A stretch of DNA of 64,000 nucleotides from Fidelibacterota bacterium (GTDB lineage Bacteria > Fidelibacterota > UBA8477 > JABMPR01): the NCBI GenBank assembly GCA_018673925.1, contig JABHBL010000004.1, positions 38,524 to 102,523 on the forward strand, given 5' to 3'. Every line of letters starts with the position of its first letter. Position 1 is the first letter of the stretch. The notes below the pieces were generated by a model. That model worked only from the letters and a program-made list of their open reading frames with translations. It was not told where the DNA came from and did no database searches. The translations under genes were made by a program, and so were the position numbers. Shown here one piece after another: positions 1 through 23,729 of this stretch.

Positions 1-1356
1 GGGAATCAGGAGCACTGGTATAATAGCTTCCGCTGGAGCTACAATAATGCATTTAGCAATCGACGGAAGTGGAGCTATCTGTCCTATGATAATCCTGACA
101 GTCAGGCAATGGATACACTCCTCTGGCAGGAAGACATTGTGGATACGCGAACCTGGAATCACAATATGAGTCTTTCAGGGGACACTCAGGTGATGAAGGT
201 GTTGAAACTGGTGGGGTCAGTTTCCTATAAAGATGCCTGGGGCTTTAAATACTTCGATCCCATTCTGGATGACAATGGTTTGGCCCTGGTTGATACTGGT
301 TCAGGTGCTATTGAAACCACAGAAATCGAAGGTTTTATTCGTCGTGGAACCTTCAGTACCAGCGCCAGTCTGAATACAAAAGTGTATGGAATCTTTCCAG
401 TAAAAATTGGACCACTACAGGCTATCAGACACACCTTGACCCCCTCGATGTCCCTGAGTTATACACCCGACTTTTCAACCGATTTTTGGGGGTATACAGA
501 ATCTCTGACAGACACAACTGGCGCAGAACAACGCTTCGATCGATTTGCCGGAAGTGATCTGGGAGCCACATCAAGCAATGAAGCCCTACGAATGAGTTGG
601 AGATTGAACAATGTTTTTGACTATAAATTGCTTCAAAATAATGTGGAGAGTAAGTCCCAGTTTTTCACATGGAATATGAGTGGATCATATAATTTTAAAG
701 CTGATTCCTTGAAAGCATCGGATATTTCCAGCAGCATGAAAGTGAATATTGGGAAATCCTTTCGGCTCAGTCCCAGCATGACTTATGAGGTCTATGAAAG
801 AGACTCAACAGGCACACATAAGATAGACAAGTTCCGAGCACCACGAATGACCCGGGCTGGTTTCAGCTTTGGTTTTAAGCTGGAAGGAGCGGCACCCGGG
901 GGTTTGCGTTCAGGTCCTCGTGAGAAAATTTCTGCAGATAGTTTGAGTGCTGACTCTGCACAAGGTTTTGATGAGGATTTTGATATTGGTGAGATCAAAG
1001 TTCCTAGGCCTGGTTCTGGCCGCAGCACCGCCGCCTGGACAGCTAATTTTAGTTTTAGTTATTCATATAGTCATCAGAATCCATTGGATGAAGCCAAACA
1101 AACTTTTAACCTGGGCACCAACTTAAAGTTTAATCTTTCTGATAACTGGGCTGTTAATTACAATCCTAGATTCAACCTCATGGATAAAAAATTGGTAAGT
1201 GGTTCTGTTGGAGTTACCCGGAAACTGCATTGTTGGAAGATGACCCTATCCTGGACACCCATGGGTAGATGGGGAGGTTTAAACCTGACAATCCGCCCCA
1301 ATGCTTCTCAACTTCAAGACTTGAAAGTGGAACATACTGCTCATAGAAAATATTAA
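1..1356 (+). CDS. lptD: Putative LPS-assembly protein LptD-like outer-membrane beta-barrel, C-terminal part (5'-truncated by window)
   Basis: Frame is open from base 1 (GNQEHWYNSFRWSY...). Alternating aromatic beta-strands. Motifs 'AIRHTLTPSMSLSYTPDF' and 'RKLHCWKMTLSWTP...LQDLK' resemble FCB-type LptD C-termini. Confidence 0.7.
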   Translation, partial: GNQEHWYNSFRWSYNNAFSNRRKWSYLSYDNPDSQAMDTLLWQEDIVDTRTWNHNMSLSGDTQVMKVLKLVGSVSYKDAWGFKYFDPILDDNGLALVDTGSGAIETTEIEGFIRRGTFSTSASLNTKVYGIFPVKIGPLQAIRHTLTPSMSLSYTPDFSTDFWGYTESLTDTTGAEQRFDRFAGSDLGATSSNEALRMSWRLNNVFDYKLLQNNVESKSQFFTWNMSGSYNFKADSLKASDISSSMKVNIGKSFRLSPSMTYEVYERDSTGTHKIDKFRAPRMTRAGFSFGFKLEGAAPGGLRSGPREKISADSLSADSAQGFDEDFDIGEIKVPRPGSGRSTAAWTANFSFSYSYSHQNPLDEAKQTFNLGTNLKFNLSDNWAVNYNPRFNLMDKKLVSGSVGVTRKLHCWKMTLSWTPMGRWGGLNLTIRPNASQLQDLKVEHTAHRKY

Positions 1357-1510
1357 AAGCTCTATAGTCCATTCCCGATTACTGCTTTAAACACAAAGAC
1401 ATCAGCACTAAAAAAACCTAAATAGTCTTGTGCAGAATAGGCGTAGACTTTTTTTTATCCGGGATTACTTTTAGTACAAGCATTTTAAAACCATAATTTC
1501 GGAGTGTCTG

Positions 1511-2140
1511 GTGTCCCAAGTCATTGAGTTGAAATCTCATCCACTCGTCTCACACAACTTAGCCATCCTGAGAAGTAAAGACACTGACAGTCAACGGTTT
1601 AGAGAATCAGCTCAAAGACTGAGCAGTATTGTGCTTATGGCTGCCACTGAATCATTAAACACTGTTGAGCAGAGTGTTGAAACACCCATGCAAAAAACCA
1701 CTGAAATGGTTTTCGCTGAAGACATCTGGTTTATCCCTGTTCTAAGAGCAGGCCTGGCTATGGTAGATATCGGTCTCAGTCTTTTACCAGATGCGCATGT
1801 TGGATTTGTGGGTCTCTATAGAGATGAAGAGACTCTGGAGCCCCAGTATTACTACAAAAATTTGCCGGATTATTCAATGTCCGCCCACAGCTGTTTTCTC
1901 ATGGATCCCATGCTGGCAACGGGTGGAAGTGCCTGTGCGGCGATTGATTTGTTAAAATCTCAAGGTGCCACAGACATCCGACTATTGACTCTGATCTGCG
2001 CTCCGGAAGGCATAAAAGAAGTCTTTGCAAAGCATCCAGATGTGGCCATTTTTACTGCTTCTGTAGATGAACGATTAAATGAGGTAGGATACATCGTCCC
2101 CGGTCTTGGGGATGCAGGTGACCGATATTTTGGGACTTGA
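1511..2140 (+). CDS. upp: Uracil phosphoribosyltransferase
   Basis: Motifs HPLV, PVLRAGL, GLYRDEETL, DPMLATGGS and YIVPGLGDAGDRYFGT. GTG start with GGAG RBS. Confidence 0.97.
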   Translation: MSQVIELKSHPLVSHNLAILRSKDTDSQRFRESAQRLSSIVLMAATESLNTVEQSVETPMQKTTEMVFAEDIWFIPVLRAGLAMVDIGLSLLPDAHVGFVGLYRDEETLEPQYYYKNLPDYSMSAHSCFLMDPMLATGGSACAAIDLLKSQGATDIRLLTLICAPEGIKEVFAKHPDVAIFTASVDERLNEVGYIVPGLGDAGDRYFGT

Positions 2141-2156
2141 GCTCTAAGTTCAGCCC

Positions 2157-2202
2157 AAAAACGGCGGAAGGGAGGACAGTCCGGGCGGACTGCCTCCCCT
2201 CC
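2157..2202 (-). terminator. GC-rich hairpin between convergent upp and fliG-like gene; probable terminator of the motor operon
   Basis: GGAAGGGAGGACAGTCC-gggc-GGACTGCCTCCCCTCC stem (2166-2202). On the minus strand a short T-run follows a few nt after the stem. Confidence 0.5.
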
Positions 2203-2245
2203 TATCTCGCTAGTGCAGGACAGCGGAGATATCTTCATCAGCTAG

Positions 2246-3175
2246 CTACTCGATAAAGTCGGCCTCGGCGAACTCCTCGATACTGAAATCATTATCTGGA
2301 TCAGCGTCCATTTGTAGGATGAATTCCACAACCTTCTTTTGTGCTCCCTCTACCTGCTTGCGAGAAACGGGTCCTTCTTTGGGTTCATACATGGCCTGCT
2401 TCTTCTGAGGCAGGTTCTCTATAACCCTGTCGCTTAATTCCTGATCTTGCCCCTTTAGTGCCAGAGCAATATCATCGATATCAAGACTGTTGAATACATC
2501 TCTGAGAATATTCTCCGGGAGCATGGGCACATTTTCAAAAGTGAAGTGATGTTTTTTCACTTCTTTGGCCAGCTCAGGATCTTCCTGGGAGAGATAATCA
2601 AGAAATTGTCGTTGTTCTTTAGCATCCATGGTTCCCAATAAACCTGCCATGGCTTTACCACCACCTTCTGAATATTCAGCTTGAGATGGAATTTGCTTGG
2701 CTTTTTCACGGAACTCTGAAGCAACTTCCAGGACAGCTTCCAGTGGAACGTCCTTAATCTTTCCAAGATCAACCATGGCTTCGGTGCGAATTTCAGTGGG
2801 AAGTCTCATGAGGAGACGACCTTGCATTTCTGTAGGAATTTGGGCCAGGAGTATGGAAATCGAACGAGTTGGTTCTGAGCGAATCAAATAGGCGAGATGA
2901 ACTTCAGTCATACCCTCAAGAAAAGCAAAGGGTTGGGAGGTTGCATCCTTGGCATCAGCTGCAAATTTCTTGGACATAAAGGAGAAATAGAATTCCTCGA
3001 GCACCATCTTCTTAAATTCAAAATGCACGCTTTTTATTTGGGGTACACGCTGGCGGACCGCAATGATTTCCTGATCGGTCAGATTTGGGAACAACTGTCC
3101 CGCAAGACGTGCTCCTAATATATCAAAAAGAATTGCGGCTTTATCAATACCGGCTAGTTTTTTTGTAGTAGCCAT
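2246..3175 (-). CDS. fliG: FliG-like rotor protein (divergent)
   Basis: N-terminal 'GIDKAAIL', GG linker 'EGGGKAMAGLL', MFXF-like 'HFTFE', 'IALALKG', and 'GPVSRKQVEGAQKKVV'. The EHPQ motif is replaced by EPTR. Confidence 0.85.
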   Translation of the reverse strand: MATTKKLAGIDKAAILFDILGARLAGQLFPNLTDQEIIAVRQRVPQIKSVHFEFKKMVLEEFYFSFMSKKFAADAKDATSQPFAFLEGMTEVHLAYLIRSEPTRSISILLAQIPTEMQGRLLMRLPTEIRTEAMVDLGKIKDVPLEAVLEVASEFREKAKQIPSQAEYSEGGGKAMAGLLGTMDAKEQRQFLDYLSQEDPELAKEVKKHHFTFENVPMLPENILRDVFNSLDIDDIALALKGQDQELSDRVIENLPQKKQAMYEPKEGPVSRKQVEGAQKKVVEFILQMDADPDNDFSIEEFAEADFIE

Positions 3176-5061
3176 TATTTTTGCCCCTTCTTTTTCTTTT
3201 TACCATTCGATTTTTCTTCTTCCTCAGTTTCTTCTTCCTCTTCGGCTTCGCCAGTATCCTGTAGCCAGTCCTTCACAATACTGGAGGCTGAACCAGGCTT
3301 ACTTACAGCCAGGGAGACGACTGATTTTTTAATACTATCCACTTCATCCAGTAACTCTGGATCGATTTCCGGTTCAGGAATGAGATCTTCTTCAGGTTCT
3401 GCTTCAACTTCAGGAGTTGGTTCAGGCTCTACTGTTGCCTGGGTCATGTCCTGTGATGGAGGTAATTCTGGAGCCTGACGACGGCCACCCATGAGGGCAC
3501 CGATAATCACGGCTAAACCGACCAGTACAGCAGCACCAATAATGAAAAGCCACAGGAGATCATCTTCATCTTCTGGTAGCATGGTTGCCTGGAGTCTCTG
3601 GTTCTCAAGATCATCCATTTGCTGTTTGAGTTTATCTTCGCGATCTTTGATGGCAGATTTTTCAGCTTCTCTACGTTTTTGCTCAAGCTCAAGCTTCAGA
3701 CGCTGCTCTTCTTCAAGATCCACAGCGGACAGTTGATCTTTGAGATCATCAAGTTGTTCAGAGAGAAGAGCTAACCTTAAGGAGTCCTGACGTAAGCGAT
3801 CCTGAGCTTGTTCCTGCTGGGCTTCAAATAATTGTCGACGTTCTTCTGCTAAACGGCTTTCTTCCTGCTCGCGTAAATCTCTTAACTCATTCTCGCGCTG
3901 TTGAATCCGTTCTTCTTCTTGAAGACGCAGTTGTGCTAGTTCAGCTTCATGTTCTTTCTGTTTATCAGCCTCTTCCTGTCGGATGCGGGCCATTTCAACG
4001 TCACGAGCTTCCTTGTTAGCTTGATCAAGTTTCATCTGCTCTTGTTGAGCTTCTAAATCTTTAATGCGCTTATTCTCAGTTTCTTCTTTCTGACGGGCTT
4101 CAATTGCTGTCATTTTTTCAGCAATGGATTTCAGAAGAAGTTGTTCTGTGTCAGGCTTGTCATTGGTAGCGCCCTGAAAATCAGCTGTCATAACCTGTAA
4201 CTTGTCACCACGCTCTCTGTTGAAATGGGCTGCAACCATGGTTACAGTGCGAATATTTTCAATAATCTGAGGGGAGATGGGGTCTTCCAGGATAACGGTC
4301 AACTCCATTTTGTTTACGCGTAGGCTTGGACCACTAATACTGGCAACCGTATGACGGGACAATTTTGCATTACCACTTTCAGAATAGCTCACCAGATTCT
4401 GGTCTTCGGTGTTTTCTGTGACGCTTTGAATATCCTCTTCCAGGATGACTTCATTTTCTTCAAGTGAAAGACTTGCCTCAGCGGCAACCTCAGTTTGTGT
4501 GGTATCAGGAATCTCAGCTACTTCGTCAAGATCTTCAGCAGCAGCATAAACAACATCTTCATTGGTGTCTTCTTCTACAGGTACTTCTTCTTCGTATAAT
4601 TCAAAACCAGGTGATTGAATTCCAGGGAATCCAGGGATATCGGATGGTACATCAGTTTTAATAGGTCGCTTTTTGAGAATGGTCCGAGTCTTTTTTACAC
4701 TTGGATCATCTGCTTCTGTACTGGATGATTGAGCCATTCCAGGAGTTTTGTTAAGAGATTGTTTGAAAATTTCCTGCTCAGGACTGACTTTTCCTTTTTT
4801 GGATCCAGGTGCTTCATAAACAGTTGTATATTTTTGAGTTGGTGTTGCTTCCATGACAACATTTACGTTCACAATGAAATTCTCATGTCGCAGAATGCGA
4901 TAAACAGCATCACTTACTCTTTGATGAATGGTATTCTCCAGCAGAATCTTTTGGGAGAGCACCTCTTTATTGGTGTCCGGTAGTGCGAACACCTGAGAGA
5001 TCAACATCAGTGAGGTAATGATACCGCCTGTTATGATGTGTTTAAATGCTGGATACTTCAT
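3175..5061 (-). CDS. FliF-like ring protein (RBM3-only, long coiled-coil stalk, single C-terminal TM)
   Basis: Split RBM3-like segments 'LENTIHQRVSDAVYRILRHENFIVNVNV' and 'VNKMELTVIL...AAHFNRERGDKLQV'. TM 'LLWLFIIGAAVLVGLAVIIGALMGG'. FliF-type tail 'KPGSASSIVKDWL'. Stop overlaps the fliG start (TAATG). Confidence 0.7.
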   Translation of the reverse strand: MKYPAFKHIITGGIITSLMLISQVFALPDTNKEVLSQKILLENTIHQRVSDAVYRILRHENFIVNVNVVMEATPTQKYTTVYEAPGSKKGKVSPEQEIFKQSLNKTPGMAQSSSTEADDPSVKKTRTILKKRPIKTDVPSDIPGFPGIQSPGFELYEEEVPVEEDTNEDVVYAAAEDLDEVAEIPDTTQTEVAAEASLSLEENEVILEEDIQSVTENTEDQNLVSYSESGNAKLSRHTVASISGPSLRVNKMELTVILEDPISPQIIENIRTVTMVAAHFNRERGDKLQVMTADFQGATNDKPDTEQLLLKSIAEKMTAIEARQKEETENKRIKDLEAQQEQMKLDQANKEARDVEMARIRQEEADKQKEHEAELAQLRLQEEERIQQRENELRDLREQEESRLAEERRQLFEAQQEQAQDRLRQDSLRLALLSEQLDDLKDQLSAVDLEEEQRLKLELEQKRREAEKSAIKDREDKLKQQMDDLENQRLQATMLPEDEDDLLWLFIIGAAVLVGLAVIIGALMGGRRQAPELPPSQDMTQATVEPEPTPEVEAEPEEDLIPEPEIDPELLDEVDSIKKSVVSLAVSKPGSASSIVKDWLQDTGEAEEEEETEEEEKSNGKKKKKGQK

Positions 5062-5093
5062 ATGCTTCTCCTCGTTTCTAGCGCCGGTCTCTA

Positions 5094-5723
5094 TTAACCG
5101 ACCGTTAGAAAAGTTATATCAACGCGTCTGTTTTTTGCCTGATTTGCTCTAGTATCATTTGGAAATTTTGGTTGAGTATCACCAAAACCTATCGCTCTAA
5201 ATTTCCTTGCATCAACACCTTCAGAAATTAGATAGCGCACCACCGCAGAAGCTCGAGATGCAGAGAGCTCCCAATTGGATTTAAAAATTGCTGAGCGCAT
5301 AGGTATGTTATCGGTATGTCCTTCTACTGCAATCGCATATGTCGCTTTTTTCATAGTAGGTACCATCTTTATCAAGAGAGCTTTTATTTCTCCCGAAACG
5401 TTAGCGGTACCAGAGGGGAAGGCAAAATCACCTGGAATTTTCATTGTGACACCACGGGCATTCTTGGTGACCTCAATCATATCCTCTAGCTTTTCCTCTT
5501 TTAACAGTTTTTTTACTTCATTCTTAACCGTGGTTAAGCTTACTTGGGGTTTTGCGTTTTCATCCGCCATACCATTCAACATATTATTGATTTTAACAGG
5601 GTCCAGAGTGGACATTGAAAACAATAACACAAAAAAGGTCATGAGCAAAGTTGCCATGTCCGCGTAGGTGGTTAGCCAGTCGTTGGAATCAGTGTCGCGA
5701 TTTTTATTTTGAGCATTGATCAT
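5094..5723 (-). CDS. motB: MotB/PomB-family stator subunit with OmpA-like peptidoglycan-binding domain
   Basis: TM 'WLTTYADMATLLMTFFVLLFSMS' with the conserved Asp; EGHTD, NWELSASRA, NRRVDI. ATG at 5723 follows GAGGA; alternative TTG at 5732. Confidence 0.93.
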   Translation of the reverse strand: MINAQNKNRDTDSNDWLTTYADMATLLMTFFVLLFSMSTLDPVKINNMLNGMADENAKPQVSLTTVKNEVKKLLKEEKLEDMIEVTKNARGVTMKIPGDFAFPSGTANVSGEIKALLIKMVPTMKKATYAIAVEGHTDNIPMRSAIFKSNWELSASRASAVVRYLISEGVDARKFRAIGFGDTQPKFPNDTRANQAKNRRVDITFLTVG

Positions 5724-5728
5724 GATTG

Positions 5729-6526
5729 TCAATCCTCACGAACCCAATCGCGTGGTGATAAATATGAGTTGAGAAATTCACGAACCAACATCGGGTGTTT
5801 CTTGATCTTGAGCATGATGATACCATCAATAATCATGTTCTGGGTAATATTTCGCTTCTCAATTTGTGAACGTAACTTGGCCGCAATGGGAATAAAGATC
5901 ATATTTGCAAACAGAGCGCCATAAAAAGTGGTTATTAAGGCAACACCCATTGAGGAACCCAACTGTGCAGCCATTTGATCAGCTTCTGTGTCAGAAGCTC
6001 CCATTCCAAGAAGCATGGCAACAAGACCCACCAGCGTTCCAACCATACCAAAAGCAGGTGAGAGGGATCCCATTGTCTTAAATACGTTGGCCTGGGCATC
6101 TTCTCGAAGTTGACGATTAACTACGCGAGTTTCCATGATATTTCGGATGTCTTCCTCCGAATGTCCATCAACAATCAATTGAACACCATCTTTTAGGAAA
6201 AAATTACGAACACCATCTGTTGCTTTCTCGAGATCTGAGGTACCCTTCCGTGCAACTGCAGCCAACTCAACCAATTCTTTCAAAGTCTCTGAATCTTTAT
6301 GTTTATCACCCTTGAACACTGCACCAAGATTGGTATACAGGGACAATACTTCTTTCACTGGAAAGGCTACGGCAGTAGCAGCAATGGTTCCACCAAGCAC
6401 GATCATTAAAGATTTTAAGTCAACAAAAGACATTGCGCCATGAGGTAAATCCAGGCTTACTTCAATTATGGCATAACCTATTAATCCAAGTCCAAGTAAA
6501 AATCCGATAATGGTTGCAAAATCCAT
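5729..6526 (-). CDS. motA: MotA/PomA-family stator subunit
   Basis: 'MDFATIIG', 'SLMIVLGGT', 'ARKG..LE', 'FLKDGVQLIVDG', 'PAFGMVGTLVGLV', 'ALITTFYGALFANMIFIPIAAKL'. Confidence 0.93.
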   Translation of the reverse strand: MDFATIIGFLLGLGLIGYAIIEVSLDLPHGAMSFVDLKSLMIVLGGTIAATAVAFPVKEVLSLYTNLGAVFKGDKHKDSETLKELVELAAVARKGTSDLEKATDGVRNFFLKDGVQLIVDGHSEEDIRNIMETRVVNRQLREDAQANVFKTMGSLSPAFGMVGTLVGLVAMLLGMGASDTEADQMAAQLGSSMGVALITTFYGALFANMIFIPIAAKLRSQIEKRNITQNMIIDGIIMLKIKKHPMLVREFLNSYLSPRDWVRED

Positions 6527-6544
6527 ATGCTAATCCTTTTCCAG

Positions 6545-7912
6545 TTAATCCCTTGCGGAAACGGCTGAACGCAACCGATTCTCGTTTAGAGCACGCAGGA
6601 TATTACGTACTTCGTCGTATCCGGGGTCGATCTGAAGCGCAATATTCCAATTGATGGTTGCTCTATCGATCTGATTAAGCTTGTAATAGATGGACCCCCG
6701 TCTGGCATAAGCTAATGCCAGGTTTGGATTGTATTCCAAAGCTTCGTTGATCTCAATAAGCGCATCATCGTATTCCTCGTTATAGAAGAGTCGTAATGAG
6801 CGTGAGAGGTGTTTCAAAGCCTGGTTGATCTGAGCATCGGAAACGTGGCGCGCCAATTGGAGGGAGGCCACGGAATCTTCCAAAACCTGATTTCGTTGTT
6901 CAAGATGTTCCACCATACGATTGAGGTGCTCAATCTCAGCACTTGACATTCTGAGCGAATCTCTCAGAACCAGCAGTTGACGCTCCTGAGCCTTGTGCCA
7001 GCTGGAGTCAATCACCGTTCGCATGGGCAAGCCGTCTTCAGTGACAACACCTGAAACCTTAATACCGCCGCGTTGCTTGCTGGCTGCTGATTTGACGCGG
7101 GGAAGGAAATAATCCAGCCCGATTCCTATTCCAGGTGGGTTCTCGCGATCCTCGCCAAGATAGGGTAAATTTTGCATGTTGGAGAAACCGACATTGATGT
7201 GGTATTCATGGGTTAATGGTACTTTAACTCCAGCATTGATACCCACGCCATCCCATTCAATGATGAAATCGAGACCTCCACGATCAGCCATGATATTGGT
7301 GTTCAATAATAGACCTAAAAAGAAACCAATACTGTTGGCCTTGGCAATCTTGATTGTGTCGCCAGGTGTGGTGGTTGTATCCAGATCAAATTTCCCAAAA
7401 TTGGATCCATAACGTCCAGAACCAATACCCAGATAGGTTTTGAGATTATACTCAGAAAAACTGTTCTCGCGGCTTAGTAGCATATAGTAGGAAAGATTAC
7501 GGACCTTTTCCTCAAGACCGGTAGAATCTGATTCCGTGCTGGTAACACTGATATCATTCACTCCAATTCCTACAGCGGTTTCACCATAGGTCAAGAGTCG
7601 GTTTTGAATATGTAATGCAATATCATTTTCATTGGCGTCAGAGCCGGATTGTATGGCAGAAAGACCCAACCTGAAATCACGGGTAATATCTGTTTCCAGG
7701 AAGGCACCCTTGTTCCAATAGTCGGTTTCGAGAGCACCACGGGTAGATTGACCCGCTACACCAATACGCAATAAATAGGATTCATTATATAGACTGGAAG
7801 TTGGAATATGCATCATCGGGCCAGGTCTTGAATAATTCAAGGTCGTCTGACCGTAAACTGACATACTAGATGCAACGATAACTAAAATCAGTATATGTTT
7901 TAATGTTTTCAT
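6545..7912 (-). CDS. Exported protein: predicted beta-barrel (YjbH-like) + coiled coil + C-terminal TPRs
   Basis: Signal peptide; amphipathic beta-strands ('GLDFIIEWDGVGINAGVKVPL', 'GIGIGLDYF'); heptad segment; TPRs 'YDDALIEINEALEYNPNLALAYARRGSIYY'. Confidence 0.6.
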   Translation of the reverse strand: MKTLKHILILVIVASSMSVYGQTTLNYSRPGPMMHIPTSSLYNESYLLRIGVAGQSTRGALETDYWNKGAFLETDITRDFRLGLSAIQSGSDANENDIALHIQNRLLTYGETAVGIGVNDISVTSTESDSTGLEEKVRNLSYYMLLSRENSFSEYNLKTYLGIGSGRYGSNFGKFDLDTTTTPGDTIKIAKANSIGFFLGLLLNTNIMADRGGLDFIIEWDGVGINAGVKVPLTHEYHINVGFSNMQNLPYLGEDRENPPGIGIGLDYFLPRVKSAASKQRGGIKVSGVVTEDGLPMRTVIDSSWHKAQERQLLVLRDSLRMSSAEIEHLNRMVEHLEQRNQVLEDSVASLQLARHVSDAQINQALKHLSRSLRLFYNEEYDDALIEINEALEYNPNLALAYARRGSIYYKLNQIDRATINWNIALQIDPGYDEVRNILRALNENRLRSAVSARD

Positions 7913-7946
7913 ATGATGATCTCCAGGATCAGCCTCTCATCTCGTA

Positions 7947-8819
7947 TCATTCCTGCACAAATCGTCTGGCCAGAGTCAAATATTCACTGCCAGGGTGACG
8001 GGTAACCAGCTCTTGAAATGCAAGCTTGGCTTCCGGAAGACGATCCTTGTTTTTAAAGGCCAACCCAATCATAACCAGGGCGTCGTCCAGCTTGTCAGAA
8101 TTCTCAAAGCGCTGCACCTGTTCAAGGGCGCTAATCGCATCATCATAGAGTCCTTTTTCAAAATAGCAGCGACCTACCCAATACTGAGCATTCGCGCGCA
8201 TGGTCACGTCAACACCGCCTTGAACGATGTTGTTAAAATCTTCAATGGCCTGGTAATAAAGCTCCTGATGGTACTTTGTAAGTCCACTTCTGTAGGCGGC
8301 CTGTTCTTCGCGTTCACTTAATTTTGGACCAGAGTATGTTTGTCTCACAGGTGATGTAGTTACGGCCACATGCTTCCAGGGAGTGTGTAATTCAGCAAAC
8401 ACACTATCTGAGGCCTGGCTTTCACCAGGTACAAAATTTGGGGTTTTCCGGGCATTTTCCTGTTGACCCACCAGGCTGGTAATGCGGGTGCTCAGCAGGG
8501 CGCGATCAGTTTCTCCAGCAGCTTTTATCTGGGCAATCTCAGACTGCAGGCTGTCAATCACATTGGTCTGATATCTCAAGCGAATTTCTGTTTCAGCCAA
8601 TTTGTGCTGATAGCGATTCAATTCTTCTTCAAGTTCCATTTGCTCCCCTAATAATTCAGGGGAATCATTGATCTCTGCATCTACATCGGGACTTACCTGG
8701 GTGCTGTCATCTATTCTCAATCCAATATCATAGAAGAGGCTTCCCTGACCGGTTTGACCATAAACTGTCAATCCCAAAAGGAGTACTATTAGTGTGATAT
8801 ATGTGAGTTGTGACTTCAT
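7947..8819 (-). CDS. Periplasmic coiled-coil + CpoB/YbgF-like TPR protein
   Basis: Signal peptide; heptads; 'NAQYWVGRCYF...KLDDALVMIG...LVTRHPGSEY'. Confidence 0.75.
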   Translation of the reverse strand: MKSQLTYITLIVLLLGLTVYGQTGQGSLFYDIGLRIDDSTQVSPDVDAEINDSPELLGEQMELEEELNRYQHKLAETEIRLRYQTNVIDSLQSEIAQIKAAGETDRALLSTRITSLVGQQENARKTPNFVPGESQASDSVFAELHTPWKHVAVTTSPVRQTYSGPKLSEREEQAAYRSGLTKYHQELYYQAIEDFNNIVQGGVDVTMRANAQYWVGRCYFEKGLYDDAISALEQVQRFENSDKLDDALVMIGLAFKNKDRLPEAKLAFQELVTRHPGSEYLTLARRFVQE

Positions 8820-8821
8820 AG

Positions 8822-20532: not shown

Positions 20533-20671
20533 GCCCGGGTTATAGATGTAGTTTTGTCGTTAATCATCACGTATCGATTCAATACCTTATCTTTGCCAGC
20601 GATTATGCCGGTCAATTTTCCCCATGTTTTAGAATCAGTTTGACGACCGGCTGTCCTGCCAAGATACCTGT

Positions 20672-21787
20672 CTATCCCTGAAGCCTGATGGGCATCAGGA
20701 GCATTACTAATTCTTCTTTTTCGGCCTGTACTTCAGGCAAAATTAATCCAGGACCAATTTCAGAACCCAGCCTGAAGACCACGCGATCCGTTTCAACATT
20801 TTTGAGCATATCCTTGAGATAAATTGAATTATAACCCAAGGTCAATTCTTCTCCATCATAGTCAGACAGGACCTGTTCTTTTGCACTTGTGCTGGCTTCT
20901 GGATCTTCCGTAAAGACTTCGATATATCCAGGATGCAGTTTCAAGGCTACCTGGTGGGTCGTACGGTTTGAAAATATGGAAACGCGGCGAACTGTGGTCA
21001 CCAAGTCTTTGCTGGAAAGCGTTACTGTCTTGTCATTGGTAGATGGAATAACACTTCCATAATCTGGGTATTGCTCATCAATCAGGCGGCTGAAAATGGT
21101 AGCCGTCTCTGTGGCGACGCTGATATACTTTTCCCCGACGGATAGATTGATGGTGTCACCATCATCCAGAAAAGACTGGATTAGCGATAAAAATTTTGGT
21201 GGAACAATAATGTTGGCTTCAAAATCAGCAGAGACAAAATCCCGGTTGGTATATTTTACCAGACGATGGCCGTCGGTGGCAACGGCGCGAATTTCGTTAT
21301 TCTTCAATTCAAAAAGAACACCGAGGAGTGCTGGTTTCAGCTCATCCTTTGAAACAGCAAACACGGTTTTTTCTACGGTTCGTTTTAAAACTTTTGATTT
21401 AATCTCGAGACTTTGGGCCGGACCCAGTTCAGGAGCATCAGGGAAATCCAAAGCAGGACGACCAACGATCTTATACGTACCTGCTGTTGTGGATAGCGTC
21501 ACCCGACTATCATCAGACCAGGCGAAGGTGAGTTCTGTATCAGGTAACTCGCTGGTGATCTCCTGGAGCAGACGGACAGGTAGTGCAACGGCCCCCTCAT
21601 CTTCTCCCAGGACATTCAGATTCAGGGTATATGTGATCTCGATATCAGTACTGCGCATGGAGAGAACATTCCCCTTCACGGTGAAGAGAATGTGGTTGAG
21701 AATGGGCATGGTTGAGCGGGTGGGGCTTACGCGGGCCACCTTTTGCAAGCCGTGTAAAAGGGTTGACGAGTCAACGGTAAATTGCAT
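20672..21787 (-). CDS. dnaN: DNA polymerase III beta clamp
   Basis: 'STMPIL', 'VATDGHRL', 'YPDYGSVIP', 'LLMPIR'. Confidence 0.97.
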   Translation of the reverse strand: MQFTVDSSTLLHGLQKVARVSPTRSTMPILNHILFTVKGNVLSMRSTDIEITYTLNLNVLGEDEGAVALPVRLLQEITSELPDTELTFAWSDDSRVTLSTTAGTYKIVGRPALDFPDAPELGPAQSLEIKSKVLKRTVEKTVFAVSKDELKPALLGVLFELKNNEIRAVATDGHRLVKYTNRDFVSADFEANIIVPPKFLSLIQSFLDDGDTINLSVGEKYISVATETATIFSRLIDEQYPDYGSVIPSTNDKTVTLSSKDLVTTVRRVSIFSNRTTHQVALKLHPGYIEVFTEDPEASTSAKEQVLSDYDGEELTLGYNSIYLKDMLKNVETDRVVFRLGSEIGPGLILPEVQAEKEELVMLLMPIRLQG

Positions 21788-22086
21788 GGTTTTGATCTCC
21801 GAATGTCGGGTTATTCACTGTCCTATTTAAAGCAAACCAAACTAAACTTGGAACCGAGCAATTCAAAGCTTGAACCTGTATAAATTAGCCAGTAACTGCA
21901 ATTTTTCGCCCATAACACCCCTTTAAAGGCCGTGAAATGACCTGAGGCAGGACTGACCCAGGGTAAATCGGCATATTTTCGTAGATTTTTAGCTCTGGGG
22001 AGAGTCATACAACCAGGAATGGAAGTACTCCTTGTTGAGACCCGATCATCGCCTAGTTTTGGAGCATCAATTTGTAAACATAATAA

Positions 22087-22530
22087 ATGGGGTGGTTTCT
22101 GAAAAATTTTATCTCGCGCTGGTTTATAAATAACCCAATCCGATTTAGACTCTTTCTGGTGTTTATAGGTATTCTGGCGGGAGTGTCACATCCCTGGTTC
22201 AAAAGTGAAGTAACAACTGAGTTGTCTCAAGTCAAAATGATGTTCATGCTGGGCTTCTCAACCGTGACCTTCACGTTTATGCTCACCCTCTACCGTATGC
22301 TCCAAAAGCTGTTTCGCAAGGGTGTTGAAGTTGAAGGTCGCAAAGTGGATTTTGATGAGCGTACCATGGTGAGGGCTAGTGGTATCTTTTGGTTTATCCC
22401 GTTTGGCCTGACCTTACAAGTATCAACCTTTAGCTCTGCCGCCCCTGACCCACATTTTGGGAAAGTTATGATTATTCAGGGTCTGGCCATTGCTCTCGGT
22501 GCCTGGCTATCTCAGATCATTAAAAAATAG
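22087..22530 (+). CDS. Hypothetical membrane protein (about 4 TM)
   Basis: 147-aa ORF with several hydrophobic segments. Confidence 0.6.
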   Translation: MGWFLKNFISRWFINNPIRFRLFLVFIGILAGVSHPWFKSEVTTELSQVKMMFMLGFSTVTFTFMLTLYRMLQKLFRKGVEVEGRKVDFDERTMVRASGIFWFIPFGLTLQVSTFSSAAPDPHFGKVMIIQGLAIALGAWLSQIIKK

Positions 22531-22550
22531 CAGAGACAGGGAATACTATT

Positions 22551-23729
22551 TTGAACACGCTTAGAGTCCTTCTTTTGCTCATTATGATATCAACTTCATT
22601 TGCTGAGAAATCATCAATAAATATTCAGACTGTTCCAATTTCAAAACCAACAGTGAAACTCTTCCCAGTTTATGATAAAGAATTGATAGGATTTATTGAT
22701 TCAACAGGCGCGACCATAATTAAACCGCAGTTCTCAGTACTCATTAATGATACAACTATTCGATACATGGAATCGGCTACTGGGACCAAAATGCCCTCAG
22801 TGCTCCCTTATTATTTTAAAGAGGGTAAGCTGATCTTGGGGCAATCTGAGGTCTACTCACTGCTTAAACATGGTAACCATTACTCAATTATTAATGAAGC
22901 AGGTCAGATTGAAACGGAAATGATCTTTGAATGGGTGGGAGAATTTAGTGAGGGCTTTGCACCAGTTTGTAAGGCACGAACATTTTTGGGAATAAAGATC
23001 GGTGAAAAGTGGGGTACAATTGATCACTCCGGACAGGTGCAAATAGAACCCTGGTTTGATTATCTTGGTCCTTTTTCAGAGGGCTTGGCTGTGGCCCGTA
23101 AGAAGAAACATTATGGGTTTATTGATACTTCTGGTGTATGGGTTATCCCACCGGAATTTCAAGAATGTCGACCATTCCATGAAGGATTGGCTGCAATAAG
23201 TAGAGATGGAAATTGGGGGTACATCAATAAGCAAGGTAAGCAAATAATTGAAACCAGTGCTGAGAAGGTCTGGGATTATAATGACGGACGAGCCCGGGTT
23301 AGTGTTGCCGGGCAATACGGCTTCATAGACTCTGAAGGTGGCTTTGTTGTAAGACCATCCCTTGATTTTGCCCTGGATTATCAGGAGGGCTTGAGTTGTG
23401 TTGCTAGAGATAGTAGTGGGGGATACATCGATCTGGATGGTCAGTGGGCGATAAATCTTCAATATGCAAATGCAGGTACATTTTCACAGGGTTTAGCCGC
23501 TGTAAAGGTGGGTGAGTTGTGGGGATATATCAATCGAGAGAATGAAATGATTATAGAACCTCAATATCAACTGGCCTTCCCCTTTCAGGGTGGTTTAAGT
23601 ATAGTCTGGGACAACTTCCAGCCAGTTTATATTAACTCTAGGGGTGAAAAACTATCAGTTCTATATCTTGACGTCACACCGAGCCAGAATTTTTTTAAGC
23701 GCTGGTTTACCTATCCCAAAACTATATAA
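22551..23729 (+). CDS. WG-repeat (KWG) exported protein
   Basis: Signal peptide; repeated 'F.EGLA.V....WG(Y/F)I...G' units. Confidence 0.9.
   Translation: MNTLRVLLLLIMISTSFAEKSSINIQTVPISKPTVKLFPVYDKELIGFIDSTGATIIKPQFSVLINDTTIRYMESATGTKMPSVLPYYFKEGKLILGQSEVYSLLKHGNHYSIINEAGQIETEMIFEWVGEFSEGFAPVCKARTFLGIKIGEKWGTIDHSGQVQIEPWFDYLGPFSEGLAVARKKKHYGFIDTSGVWVIPPEFQECRPFHEGLAAISRDGNWGYINKQGKQIIETSAEKVWDYNDGRARVSVAGQYGFIDSEGGFVVRPSLDFALDYQEGLSCVARDSSGGYIDLDGQWAINLQYANAGTFSQGLAAVKVGELWGYINRENEMIIEPQYQLAFPFQGGLSIVWDNFQPVYINSRGEKLSVLYLDVTPSQNFFKRWFTYPKTI

Follow-up and report, generated by a model that had tools for sequence, protein, structure and literature searches.

In the flagellar protein FliF, the ring-building motifs RBM1 and RBM2 surround the export gate. 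Ring-building motifs are also present in SpoIIIAG and the SctJ-type proteins, which form periplasmic or intermembrane rings that are not flagellar; SpoIIIAG contains an RBM3-like domain with a β insertion, and neither SpoIIIAG nor SctJ is coupled to FliG or MotAB. In the Tol-Pal system, CpoB binds TolA, while in GldLM, which powers type IX secretion and gliding in Bacteroidota, an inner-membrane ion motor carries rotation across the periplasm to the outer membrane, with GldM driven directly inside the GldL ring. The protein analyzed here, P0001, is a FliF-like protein of 628 residues encoded on the minus strand (3175..5061) of a 64,000-nucleotide stretch of DNA from a Fidelibacterota bacterium (contig JABHBL010000004.1, positions 38,524 to 102,523), the whole of which is referred to as the window. 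Its gene is the seventh of eight tightly packed minus-strand genes, which encode, in order, a 342-aa putative lipoprotein, two CpoB/YbgF-like tetratricopeptide repeat (TPR) proteins, a 455-aa barrel-TPR protein, MotA, MotB, the FliF-like protein, and FliG.

P0001 is a FliF variant and probably works in an envelope machine, rotary or force-transducing, that is non-flagellar and so far undescribed. More specifically, there is a probability of roughly 70% that it is a FliF paralog forming a rotor ring, anchored in the membrane, for a MotAB-FliG machine that functions independently of flagella and is conserved in Fidelibacterota. The operon linkage of P0001 to MotA, MotB, and a dedicated FliG is strict. 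The textbook flagellar parts FliF, FliG, and MotAB form here a conserved unit without export gate, rod, hook, filament, or switch, and are accompanied by three or four non-flagellar envelope proteins.

A description of this module was not found in the full-text literature, subscription journals and supplements lying outside the scope of the search. The available parts of studies on MotAB evolution (PMC12505986) and on the ancestral flagellum (PMC13277936) contain no mention of it. The module is likewise unmentioned in the available parts of a survey of motility genes in genomes from oxygen-deficient zones (PMC10359470), where motility is scored from fliG, fliM, and fliNY, and of the work describing Fidelibacter multiformis as non-motile (PMC11652737).

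Homology and architecture of the FliF-like protein

The homology of residues 28-297 of P0001 to the RBM3/collar domain of FliF is established by four independent lines of evidence from sequence profiles and the predicted structure: Pfam, a profile search against PDB, a library-wide profile search, and Foldseek. PF08345 (YscJ_FliF_C) is the sole Pfam match of P0001 (E 2e-4, 22.3 bits), and the relatives P0191, P0202, P0205, and P0238 score above the cut-off of this family (24.2-32.7 bits, covering profile positions 1-147, 3-147, or 10-147). When the family profile is compared with all PDB sequences, the top match is the Vibrio flagellar M-ring protein (PDB ID: 8z5s, E 2.7e-4), in pieces that are weak but colinear and correspond to RBM3a (query 42-91, target 270-319), RBM3b (258-298 and 417-457), and the C-terminus (571-605 and 547-580). 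Direct alignment with E. coli FliF yields the same correspondences for RBM3a, RBM3b, and the tail. Among 1.84 billion representative proteins, the family profile (alignment A1) retrieves the canonical FliF fragment P0315 on the RBM3b region (E 4e-10); this fragment scores 135 bits on PF08345 and also has PF01514. In the Foldseek search of the P0001 model against PDB, ranks 1-18 are all FliF RBM3/collar entries (E 2.5e-4 to 4.8e-2), and the next match has an E of 0.95. The original prediction, made from the DNA alone, of a remodeled FliF with only the RBM3/collar region is supported. SpoIIIAG- and SctJ-type chains are absent among the Foldseek and VIA matches listed for the whole 628-residue model. 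Matches of P0001 to the SH3_and_anchor and TonB families of NCBIfam (E 2e-4 and 7.5e-4, far under the cut-offs) are located in the charged helix and in the Pro/Glu linker, and are regarded as composition noise.

The following parts are distinguished in the protein, with the slash marking the putative cleavage site:

3175..5061, minus strand: FliF-like protein P0001, open reading frame of 628 aa (PF08345, PDB profile, Foldseek)
4984..5061, minus strand: signal-peptide-like N-terminal segment, residues 1-26, ...SQVFA/LPD (sequence pattern and family alignment)
4804..4980, minus strand: first half of RBM3, residues 28-86, with helix 30-58 and strands 62-83 (8z5s and E. coli FliF alignments; AlphaFold2, AF2)
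4360..4803, minus strand: insert at the β-collar position, residues 87-234, acidic and of low complexity, with two conserved strands (alignment, AF2)
4171..4359, minus strand: second half of RBM3, residues 235-297, ending ...HFNRERGDKLQVMTADF (PF08345 positions 59-147; 8z5s 417-457; P0315 match)
3610..4140, minus strand: single predicted periplasmic stalk helix of 177 residues, residues 308-484 (AF2 confidence, fixed length)
3727..3834, minus strand: conserved heptad core of the stalk, residues 410-445, RLRQDSLRLALLSEQLDDLKDQL... (a/d occupancy, invariant residues)
3490..3561, minus strand: single predicted transmembrane (TM) segment, residues ~501-524 (AF2 helix 505-524; hydropathy scan)
3253..3363, minus strand: cytoplasmic FliF-type C-terminal tail, residues 567-603, two helices, ...IVKDWL (8z5s and E. 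coli FliF alignments)

The AF2 model, built on a 19-sequence alignment, contains strands at 62-83, 125-133, 153-161, and 235-258, and helices at 30-58, 264-280, 308-484, 505-524, 568-587, and 589-603. The N-terminus consists of a short K-rich start, a 21-residue uncharged run, and VFA/LPD, with V at position -3 and A at -1. In the family alignment, the hydrophobic N-terminal segment of most relatives outside family f1 ends in A/Q or G/Q. Such ends resemble the Q rule for signal peptidase I substrates of Bacteroidota. The N-terminus is therefore signal-peptidase-like as judged from its residues, and cleavage is plausible; the signal-like character first suggested stands as a pattern (uncharged run and VFA/LPD, with A/Q in relatives), and the same pattern is what speaks for cleavage itself. 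About 5 residues separate the putative cleavage site from RBM3a, which leaves no room for RBM1/RBM2, and PF01514 (RBM1-RBM2) is unmatched both in P0001 and in the whole genome from which the window derives. The proposed absence of these two domains is thereby upheld.

The insert at the collar position, first described as an acidic low-complexity segment, is acidic (34 of 148 residues) and mostly of low predicted local distance difference test (pLDDT) values, but it also contains two predicted strands (residues 125-133 and 153-161) that are conserved in the family (TRTILKKRPI and PGFELYEEEV regions; alignment and AF2). The TM segment is flanked by acidic residues on its N-terminal side and by RR on its C-terminal side. 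It is followed by a Pro/Glu-rich linker, a conserved 37-residue tail running to SASSIVKDWL, and a Glu/Lys-rich end; within the tail, P589, A592, I595, W599, and L600 are invariant in alignment A1. The AF2 helix 505-524 and the alignment of the tail to the C-termini of 8z5s and E. coli FliF agree with the earlier reading of a single TM segment followed by a FliG-binding-type tail.

The region between RBM3 and the TM segment measures about 200 residues, 177 of which are predicted to form one helix. In E. coli FliF, the second TM segment comes directly after RBM3, and the long helix of the P0001 family takes that very place. AF2 models residues 308-484 as one uninterrupted helix with block-mean pLDDT values of 81-97. 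Residues 298-495 consist to 60% of E/D/K/R/Q and include no Gly and one Pro; the helix itself is about 50% charged. The hydrophobic occupancy of the a/d positions, taken in the best register, is 0.25-0.5 over residues 312-410 and rises to 0.62-0.75 only around residues 410-445. This is also the best-conserved stretch of the stalk (RLRQDSLRLALL..QL..LK.QL), in which D426, S427, L433, L440, and Q443 are invariant in A1. The stalk of about 190 heptad residues that was originally placed at nucleotides ~4150-3580 is thus recovered in position and as a helix of 177 residues, but clear heptads extend over only about 35 residues. The earlier figure of 25-30 nm for its length agrees with a calculation from 177 residues and 0.15 nm for each. 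Among the 56 sequences of the clade to which the window belongs, the helix region measures 177 residues except in a few that have 169; it contains no insertions, and its mean pairwise identity is 0.74. Other low-complexity regions of the same 56 sequences vary in length (128-154 residues for the acidic insert and 35-56 for the cytoplasmic linker).

P0001 shares with FliF of Salmonella (PDB ID: 6sd1, 7d84, and 8t8p) and Vibrio (PDB ID: 8z5s and 8z5v) the split RBM3, an insertion at the collar position, and the F..RGD..V....F motif, as well as a C-terminal TM segment, a cytoplasmic tail ending in ...W(L/I) that aligns to the FliG-binding end, and the position of the gene directly upstream of fliG. 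Unlike FliF, it has neither RBM1 nor RBM2, and its N-terminal segment is signal-peptide-like instead of a first TM segment. In the family, a helix of 95-177 residues separates RBM3 from the TM segment, a stretch that is almost missing in FliF. The setting differs as well: genes for an export gate, a rod, FliE, and FliM/N are lacking, and the protein occurs in genomes without flagella.

Some relatives show peculiarities of their own. P0033, a relative of 748 aa, extends beyond the usual C-terminus into DUF2058 (PF09831), and its source name is 'DUF2058 family protein, partial'; the extension may be a read-through or frameshifted gene call and not a true fusion. In a diverged FliF-like subfamily (L028-L033; P0237, P0244, P0294, and P0331; families f7, f12, f14, and f17), the RBM3b-like segment contains a CxxC pair, and an invariant YLKPK directly follows the TM segment on its C-terminal side.

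The operon, its motor residues, and its distribution

Next to the FliF-like gene, the operon and its upstream region contain the following features:

2246..3175, minus strand: FliG paralog, 309 aa, whose start codon shares 1 nt with the stop codon of the FliF-like gene (FliG_N, FliG_M, and FliG_C over Pfam cut-offs)
5094..5732, minus strand: MotB with plug and OmpA-like domain (Pfam PF13677 and PF00691; NCBIfam)
5729..6526, minus strand: MotA/PomA-type stator subunit (NCBIfam PomA 176.5 bits versus TolQ 24.3 bits)
6545..7912, minus strand: predicted outer-membrane 12-strand β-barrel with a 78-residue helix and a TPR domain, 455 aa (AF2, Foldseek, TPR matches in Pfam)
7947..8819, minus strand: CpoB/YbgF-like coiled-coil and TPR protein, 290 aa (TIGR02795 67.4 bits, under the 90.1-bit cut-off)
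8822..9799, minus strand: CpoB/YbgF-like lipoprotein, 325 aa, with a lipobox-like LMAC by our own reading (TIGR02795 80.3 bits, under the 90.1-bit cut-off)
9789..10817, minus strand: conserved 342-aa protein (orf342) that belongs to no known family and has a Cys following the signal segment, a coiled coil, a small β domain, and a conserved C-terminal domain (alignment A5)
10860..10888, minus strand: promoter-like site upstream of the operon, TTGACA-17-TAAATT (sequence pattern; RNA contig cover falls just upstream)

The product of orf342 has no Pfam match, and a profile search with it against PDB gives 0 matches. A terminator-like site was not found at the 3' end of the operon. The AF2 model of the 455-aa protein (mean pLDDT 69) comprises twelve β strands, the 78-residue helix, and TPR helices; its Foldseek matches include FapF (E 2.4e-6), PelBC, a designed 12-strand barrel, and NanC/KdgM (TM-score up to 0.69). 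Judging from the twelve strands and the barrel matches of the model, the protein is probably an outer-membrane barrel whose helix and TPR domain reach into the periplasm.

All 12 loci compared from other families of the phylum have the same gene order, and only the copy number of the CpoB-like genes varies among them (0-2). Across these loci, the barrel protein and the 342-aa protein are conserved at E 1e-59 to 1e-102, and the FliF-like protein at E 1e-25 to 1e-41. The best 120 of 1061 matches in a search with the barrel protein carry only Marinimicrobia-type names or none. One FliF-like relative is labeled Lentisphaeria by its source, a label that is unconfirmed.

The stator and rotor proteins of the module share a set of residues with the flagellar stator-rotor core, in which MotA5B2 or PomA5B2 acts on FliG. 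In 13 module copies aligned with the E. coli proteins, the equivalent of Asp32 of MotB, which also keeps the plug, is present in all 13, as are Glu98, Pro173, and Pro222 of MotA and Lys264 of FliG; the position of Arg281 of FliG is occupied by Lys or Arg in every copy. The module FliG has the N, M, and C domains and the Gly-Gly linker of flagellar FliG. Its EHPQR motif is lost, with H126, Q128, and R160 each found in 0 of 13 copies. In flagellar FliG, this motif binds FliM, and its loss fits the absence of FliM/FliN and of a switch complex. In NCBIfam, the module FliG reaches 132 bits on TIGR00207, under the 226.7-bit cut-off, and all equivalog scores of MotA and MotB are under their cut-offs.

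FliF-FliG complexes of a like kind have already been solved. A prediction that pairs residues 1-105 of FliG (its N-domain) with residues 560-612 of P0001 (its tail), made from author-made alignments, scores 0.47, against 0.01 for the best of 3 controls, with memory of the solved complexes a possible contribution. The runs agree in at least 84% of the contacts, and the pLDDT of the partner is at least 64. The mark used for such scores is reached by 58 of 80 solved complexes and by 2 of 110 mismatched pairs; at values of 0.60 or less, just 7 of the 80 reach it, as do both mismatches. As similar complexes are solved, the pass shows likeness, not binding, and may reflect memory, so the modeling of the tail with the FliG N-domain lends weak support to the proposed interaction.

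The module occurs independently of FlhA in Fidelibacterota and is very probably not part of a flagellum. The genome of the window is a metagenome-assembled genome (MAG) of 3.41 Mb in 113 contigs, 90% complete, in which FHIPEP, YscJ_FliF, Flagellin_N, FliP, FliMN_C, Flg_bb_rod, and MCPsignal are all unmatched; FliG_C has exactly one match, the FliG of the operon. The predicted lack of an export gate agrees with the missing matches to FHIPEP, FliP, and YscJ_FliF, and, unlike in the flagellar system, no chemotaxis receptor is matched in the same genome. In an even sample of the phylum (201 genomes of 78 genera, 141 of them of high quality), the FliF-like profile matches 131 of the 201 genomes, 100 of the 141 high-quality genomes, and 61 of the 78 genera. 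A profile of the diverged subfamily (alignment A4; families f7, f12, f14, and f17 of the same phylum) matches 132 of the 201. The module is therefore carried by about two thirds of the sampled genomes of a globally abundant marine phylum (Marinimicrobia/SAR406).

FHIPEP is over its cut-off in 48 of the 201 genomes, including 7 of 22 from the genus to which the window belongs. In a cross-tabulation made by hand, FlhA occurs in 31 of 131 module-bearing and in 17 of 70 module-less genomes, leaving 100 of the 131 without FHIPEP over the cut-off. The similar frequencies indicate that the module and FlhA are unlinked. Individual families show opposite patterns: the module is found in 19 of 20 genomes of family f19, where FlhA yields only one weak sub-threshold match, and in 1 of 9 genomes of family f13, all 9 of which contain FlhA. 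All five flagellated relatives that were examined possess two FliG genes, of which the canonical one scores 135-148 bits and the other 69-99 bits; in four of the relatives, this other gene adjoins the FliF-like gene by its coordinates.

Marine metatranscriptomes contain the operon. Its 8.6 kb are found in 20 runs (17 studies), and 19 of these runs contain at least half of its words. In four runs from four studies compared over positions 1-13000 of the window, the contig word depth over 2171-10850 is 12-22, 27-52, 85-196, and 57-176; at 10851-11284, just upstream of the promoter-like site, it falls to 0, 2.05, 1.7, and 2.3, respectively, and over the lptD-like gene (435-1302) it amounts to 1.6-11.5. 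Contigs bridge every gene junction of the operon. The sharp drop at the 5' edge, common to the four runs, argues against uniform DNA carry-over, though it does not prove one transcript.

The proposed machine and its alternatives

If P0001 is a rotor component, the module might operate as follows. The signal peptide would be cleaved on export, which would leave the C-terminal TM segment as the only anchor of the protein. P0001 would then form a ring through its RBM3/collar domain, as FliF does, and its tail would bind the N-domain of the adjacent FliG and hold a ring of this dedicated protein. Stators of the MotA5B2 type, anchored to peptidoglycan via MotB, could push the FliG C-domain and turn the FliG/FliF-like ring, presumably in one direction only and without a FliM/FliN switch. 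The length-constrained charged helix would carry the RBM3/collar ring ~14-27 nm into the periplasm, depending on the clade, where it could meet the barrel protein with its helix and TPR domain, the CpoB-like TPR proteins, and the lipoprotein. Candidate outputs include surface movement, secretion through the barrel, and outer-membrane remodeling.

Among the clades of the phylum, the spacing between the RGD motif and the TM segment falls into separate classes (134-138, 161-171, 184-185, 196, 209-211, and 215-218 residues), and at 0.15 nm per residue the helices of the clades would span roughly 14 to 27 nm. A stalk length that is fixed within a lineage and discrete between lineages fits the role of a ruler or spacer; a contact of the ring with the outer membrane does not follow from it, and the drive shaft or cage first suggested is conjectural. 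Compensation of the stalk length by the barrel protein or by MotB was not seen: the barrel protein measures 444-474 aa whatever the stalk length, and MotB varies (212-293 aa) without a trend. The differences in stalk length among clades count against the simple notion that the stalk must reach the outer membrane, as does the periplasmic helix of the barrel protein, which with its 78 residues would itself be about 12 nm long. This helix and the CpoB-like coiled coils could bridge the rest of the distance. A (R/L)(Q/R)DSL(R) motif opens the heptad stretch in both the helix of the barrel protein (6545-7912) and the stalk core of the FliF-like protein (3727-3834); by its sequence, the similarity may be due to chance or hint at a pairing between the two helices.

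A wider proposal, which is tentative, concerns the operon as a whole. Its eight genes could encode a new class of envelope-spanning rotary machine, in which charged helices, arranged as a ruler-like bundle or as a cage, support the RBM3/collar ring of a switchless, MotAB-driven FliG/FliF-like rotor far inside the periplasm. The ring would engage a FapF/PelB-like outer-membrane barrel via TPR adaptors, with ion flow at the inner membrane turning or gating something at the cell surface, in a phylum that ranks among the most abundant uncultured ones of the ocean.

Several points weigh against the interpretation of P0001 as a rotor ring. The ring, its rotation, and any output of the module are inferences. 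P0001 itself scores under the 23.8-bit cut-off of PF08345, and its AF2 monomer is mediocre (mean pLDDT 62.8, predicted TM-score [pTM] 0.22). The best result of the VIA structural comparison (Z 5.5, root-mean-square deviation 9.2 Å over 95 residues, 18% identity), which superposes residues 61-295 on residues 261-438 of Salmonella FliF, is near unrelated rows at Z 4-4.7 and adds little to Foldseek. In MotA, the column of R90 is occupied by A or G while the next column has an invariant Arg, and the torque helix of FliG is altered relative to the flagellar core: D288/D289 are kept as DE in 5 of 13 copies, and 8 of 13 have a helix shortened by a 4-residue deletion after a Glu. No obvious bushing is encoded in the operon for a rotating ring of ~30 helices that crosses the peptidoglycan. 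The stalk differs in length among clades, and the barrel protein shows no compensating change. Contig depth is a poor measure of expression, and DNA may occur in RNA libraries. Finally, a flagellar island could have been missed, given the 90% completeness of the genome and the presence of FlhA in 7 of 22 genomes of its genus.

The main rival to the rotor ring is a force transducer of the Tol/Ton kind, which is unlikely in view of the motor parts. Here, the helix would act like domain II of TolA or like TonB, and MotAB/FliG would pull or twist a small or non-ring assembly, passing ion-motive energy to the barrel and the CpoB-like proteins for envelope maintenance or gated transport, without rotating continuously. 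In favor of such a device are the two CpoB/YbgF-like TPR proteins of the operon, the form of the stalk as a long and charged helix in the periplasm that precedes the single TM segment, and an outer-membrane partner resembling the secretion channels FapF and PelB. Tol-Pal and the module have in common a long charged periplasmic helix by a single TM segment, an ion motor of the 5:2 type, an OmpA-like peptidoglycan binder, and CpoB-like proteins. Unlike in Tol-Pal, however, the motor is of the MotAB and not the TolQR type: MotA scores as PomA/MotA (176 bits) and not as TolQ (24 bits), and MotB has the flagellar plug. Coupling would run via the cytoplasmic FliG, and the helix is C-terminally anchored and joined to a ring-building domain; a three-domain FliG and an RBM3/collar are ring-building parts in every known case. 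The operon contains no TolB-like gene and no Pal. Two further genes of the MotA/ExbB/TolQ family, along with other YbgF-like and TolB-like matches, lie elsewhere in the genome, so a separate Tol-type system is probably present; the idea that the module replaces Tol-Pal was dropped for the same reason. GldLM resembles the module in concept and belongs to a related FCB lineage, but its GldM is not driven through a FliG ring.

Two further readings, both poorly supported, tie P0001 to a flagellum. That it serves as an accessory or alternative rotor of a true flagellum, whose genes were lost or failed to assemble in this genome, is very improbable. That FlhA occurs in 7 of 22 genomes from this genus and in 48 of the 201 sampled for the phylum would allow for it, as would the state of the genome (113 contigs, 90% complete), but 100 of 131 module-bearing genomes have no FHIPEP over the cut-off, FlhA is as frequent with the module as without it, and family f19 combines the module in 19 of 20 genomes with one weak sub-threshold FlhA match. 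Moreover, seven flagellar and chemotaxis families are unmatched in the genome, flagellated relatives have a separate canonical FliG elsewhere, and P0001 has no RBM1/RBM2. Least credible of all is that functionless remains of a lost flagellum are decaying here. Loss of RBM1/RBM2 and of EHPQR, as well as low-complexity inserts, could resemble decay; however, nearly all matches have an intact reading frame, all 12 loci share one gene order, the catalytic and structural residues are without variation, and the length of the helix is fixed. Three non-flagellar partner genes surpass the FliF-like gene itself in conservation (E 1e-59 to 1e-102), and the operon is covered in RNA libraries.

Should the rotor ring described above indeed rotate, the module would represent a second use of the flagellar torque generator and offer structural and biophysical studies a natural minimal rotor that consists of just a FliF-like protein and FliG. 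A data point would also be gained on the sequence of events by which motor and secretion parts came together as the flagellum evolved. If the wider proposal is true, the torque-generating core of the flagellum can stand on its own as a module, a fact relevant to the origin of the flagellar motor. Motility surveys that are scored on fliG, motA, or motB will miscall module-bearing genomes.

Surroundings of the operon in the window

Just upstream of the operon neighborhood lies a housekeeping context, with an SSB-like gene (12238-12729, by translation) and a gene for a DivIVA-domain protein (13221-13826). Further along the window, gyrA (14555-17077), gyrB (17203-19140), recF (19414-20532), and dnaN (20672-21787) are all encoded on the minus strand; dnaA was not seen next to dnaN in the window. 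A 760-bp gap with a strand switch is located at about 21.8-22.5 kb, and the cumulative GC skew has its minimum near 18-20 kb. The recF-dnaN region (19414-22551) may contain the replication origin. A 392-aa protein with six WG_beta_rep repeats (PF14903, 226 bits), encoded at 22551-23729, adjoins priA.

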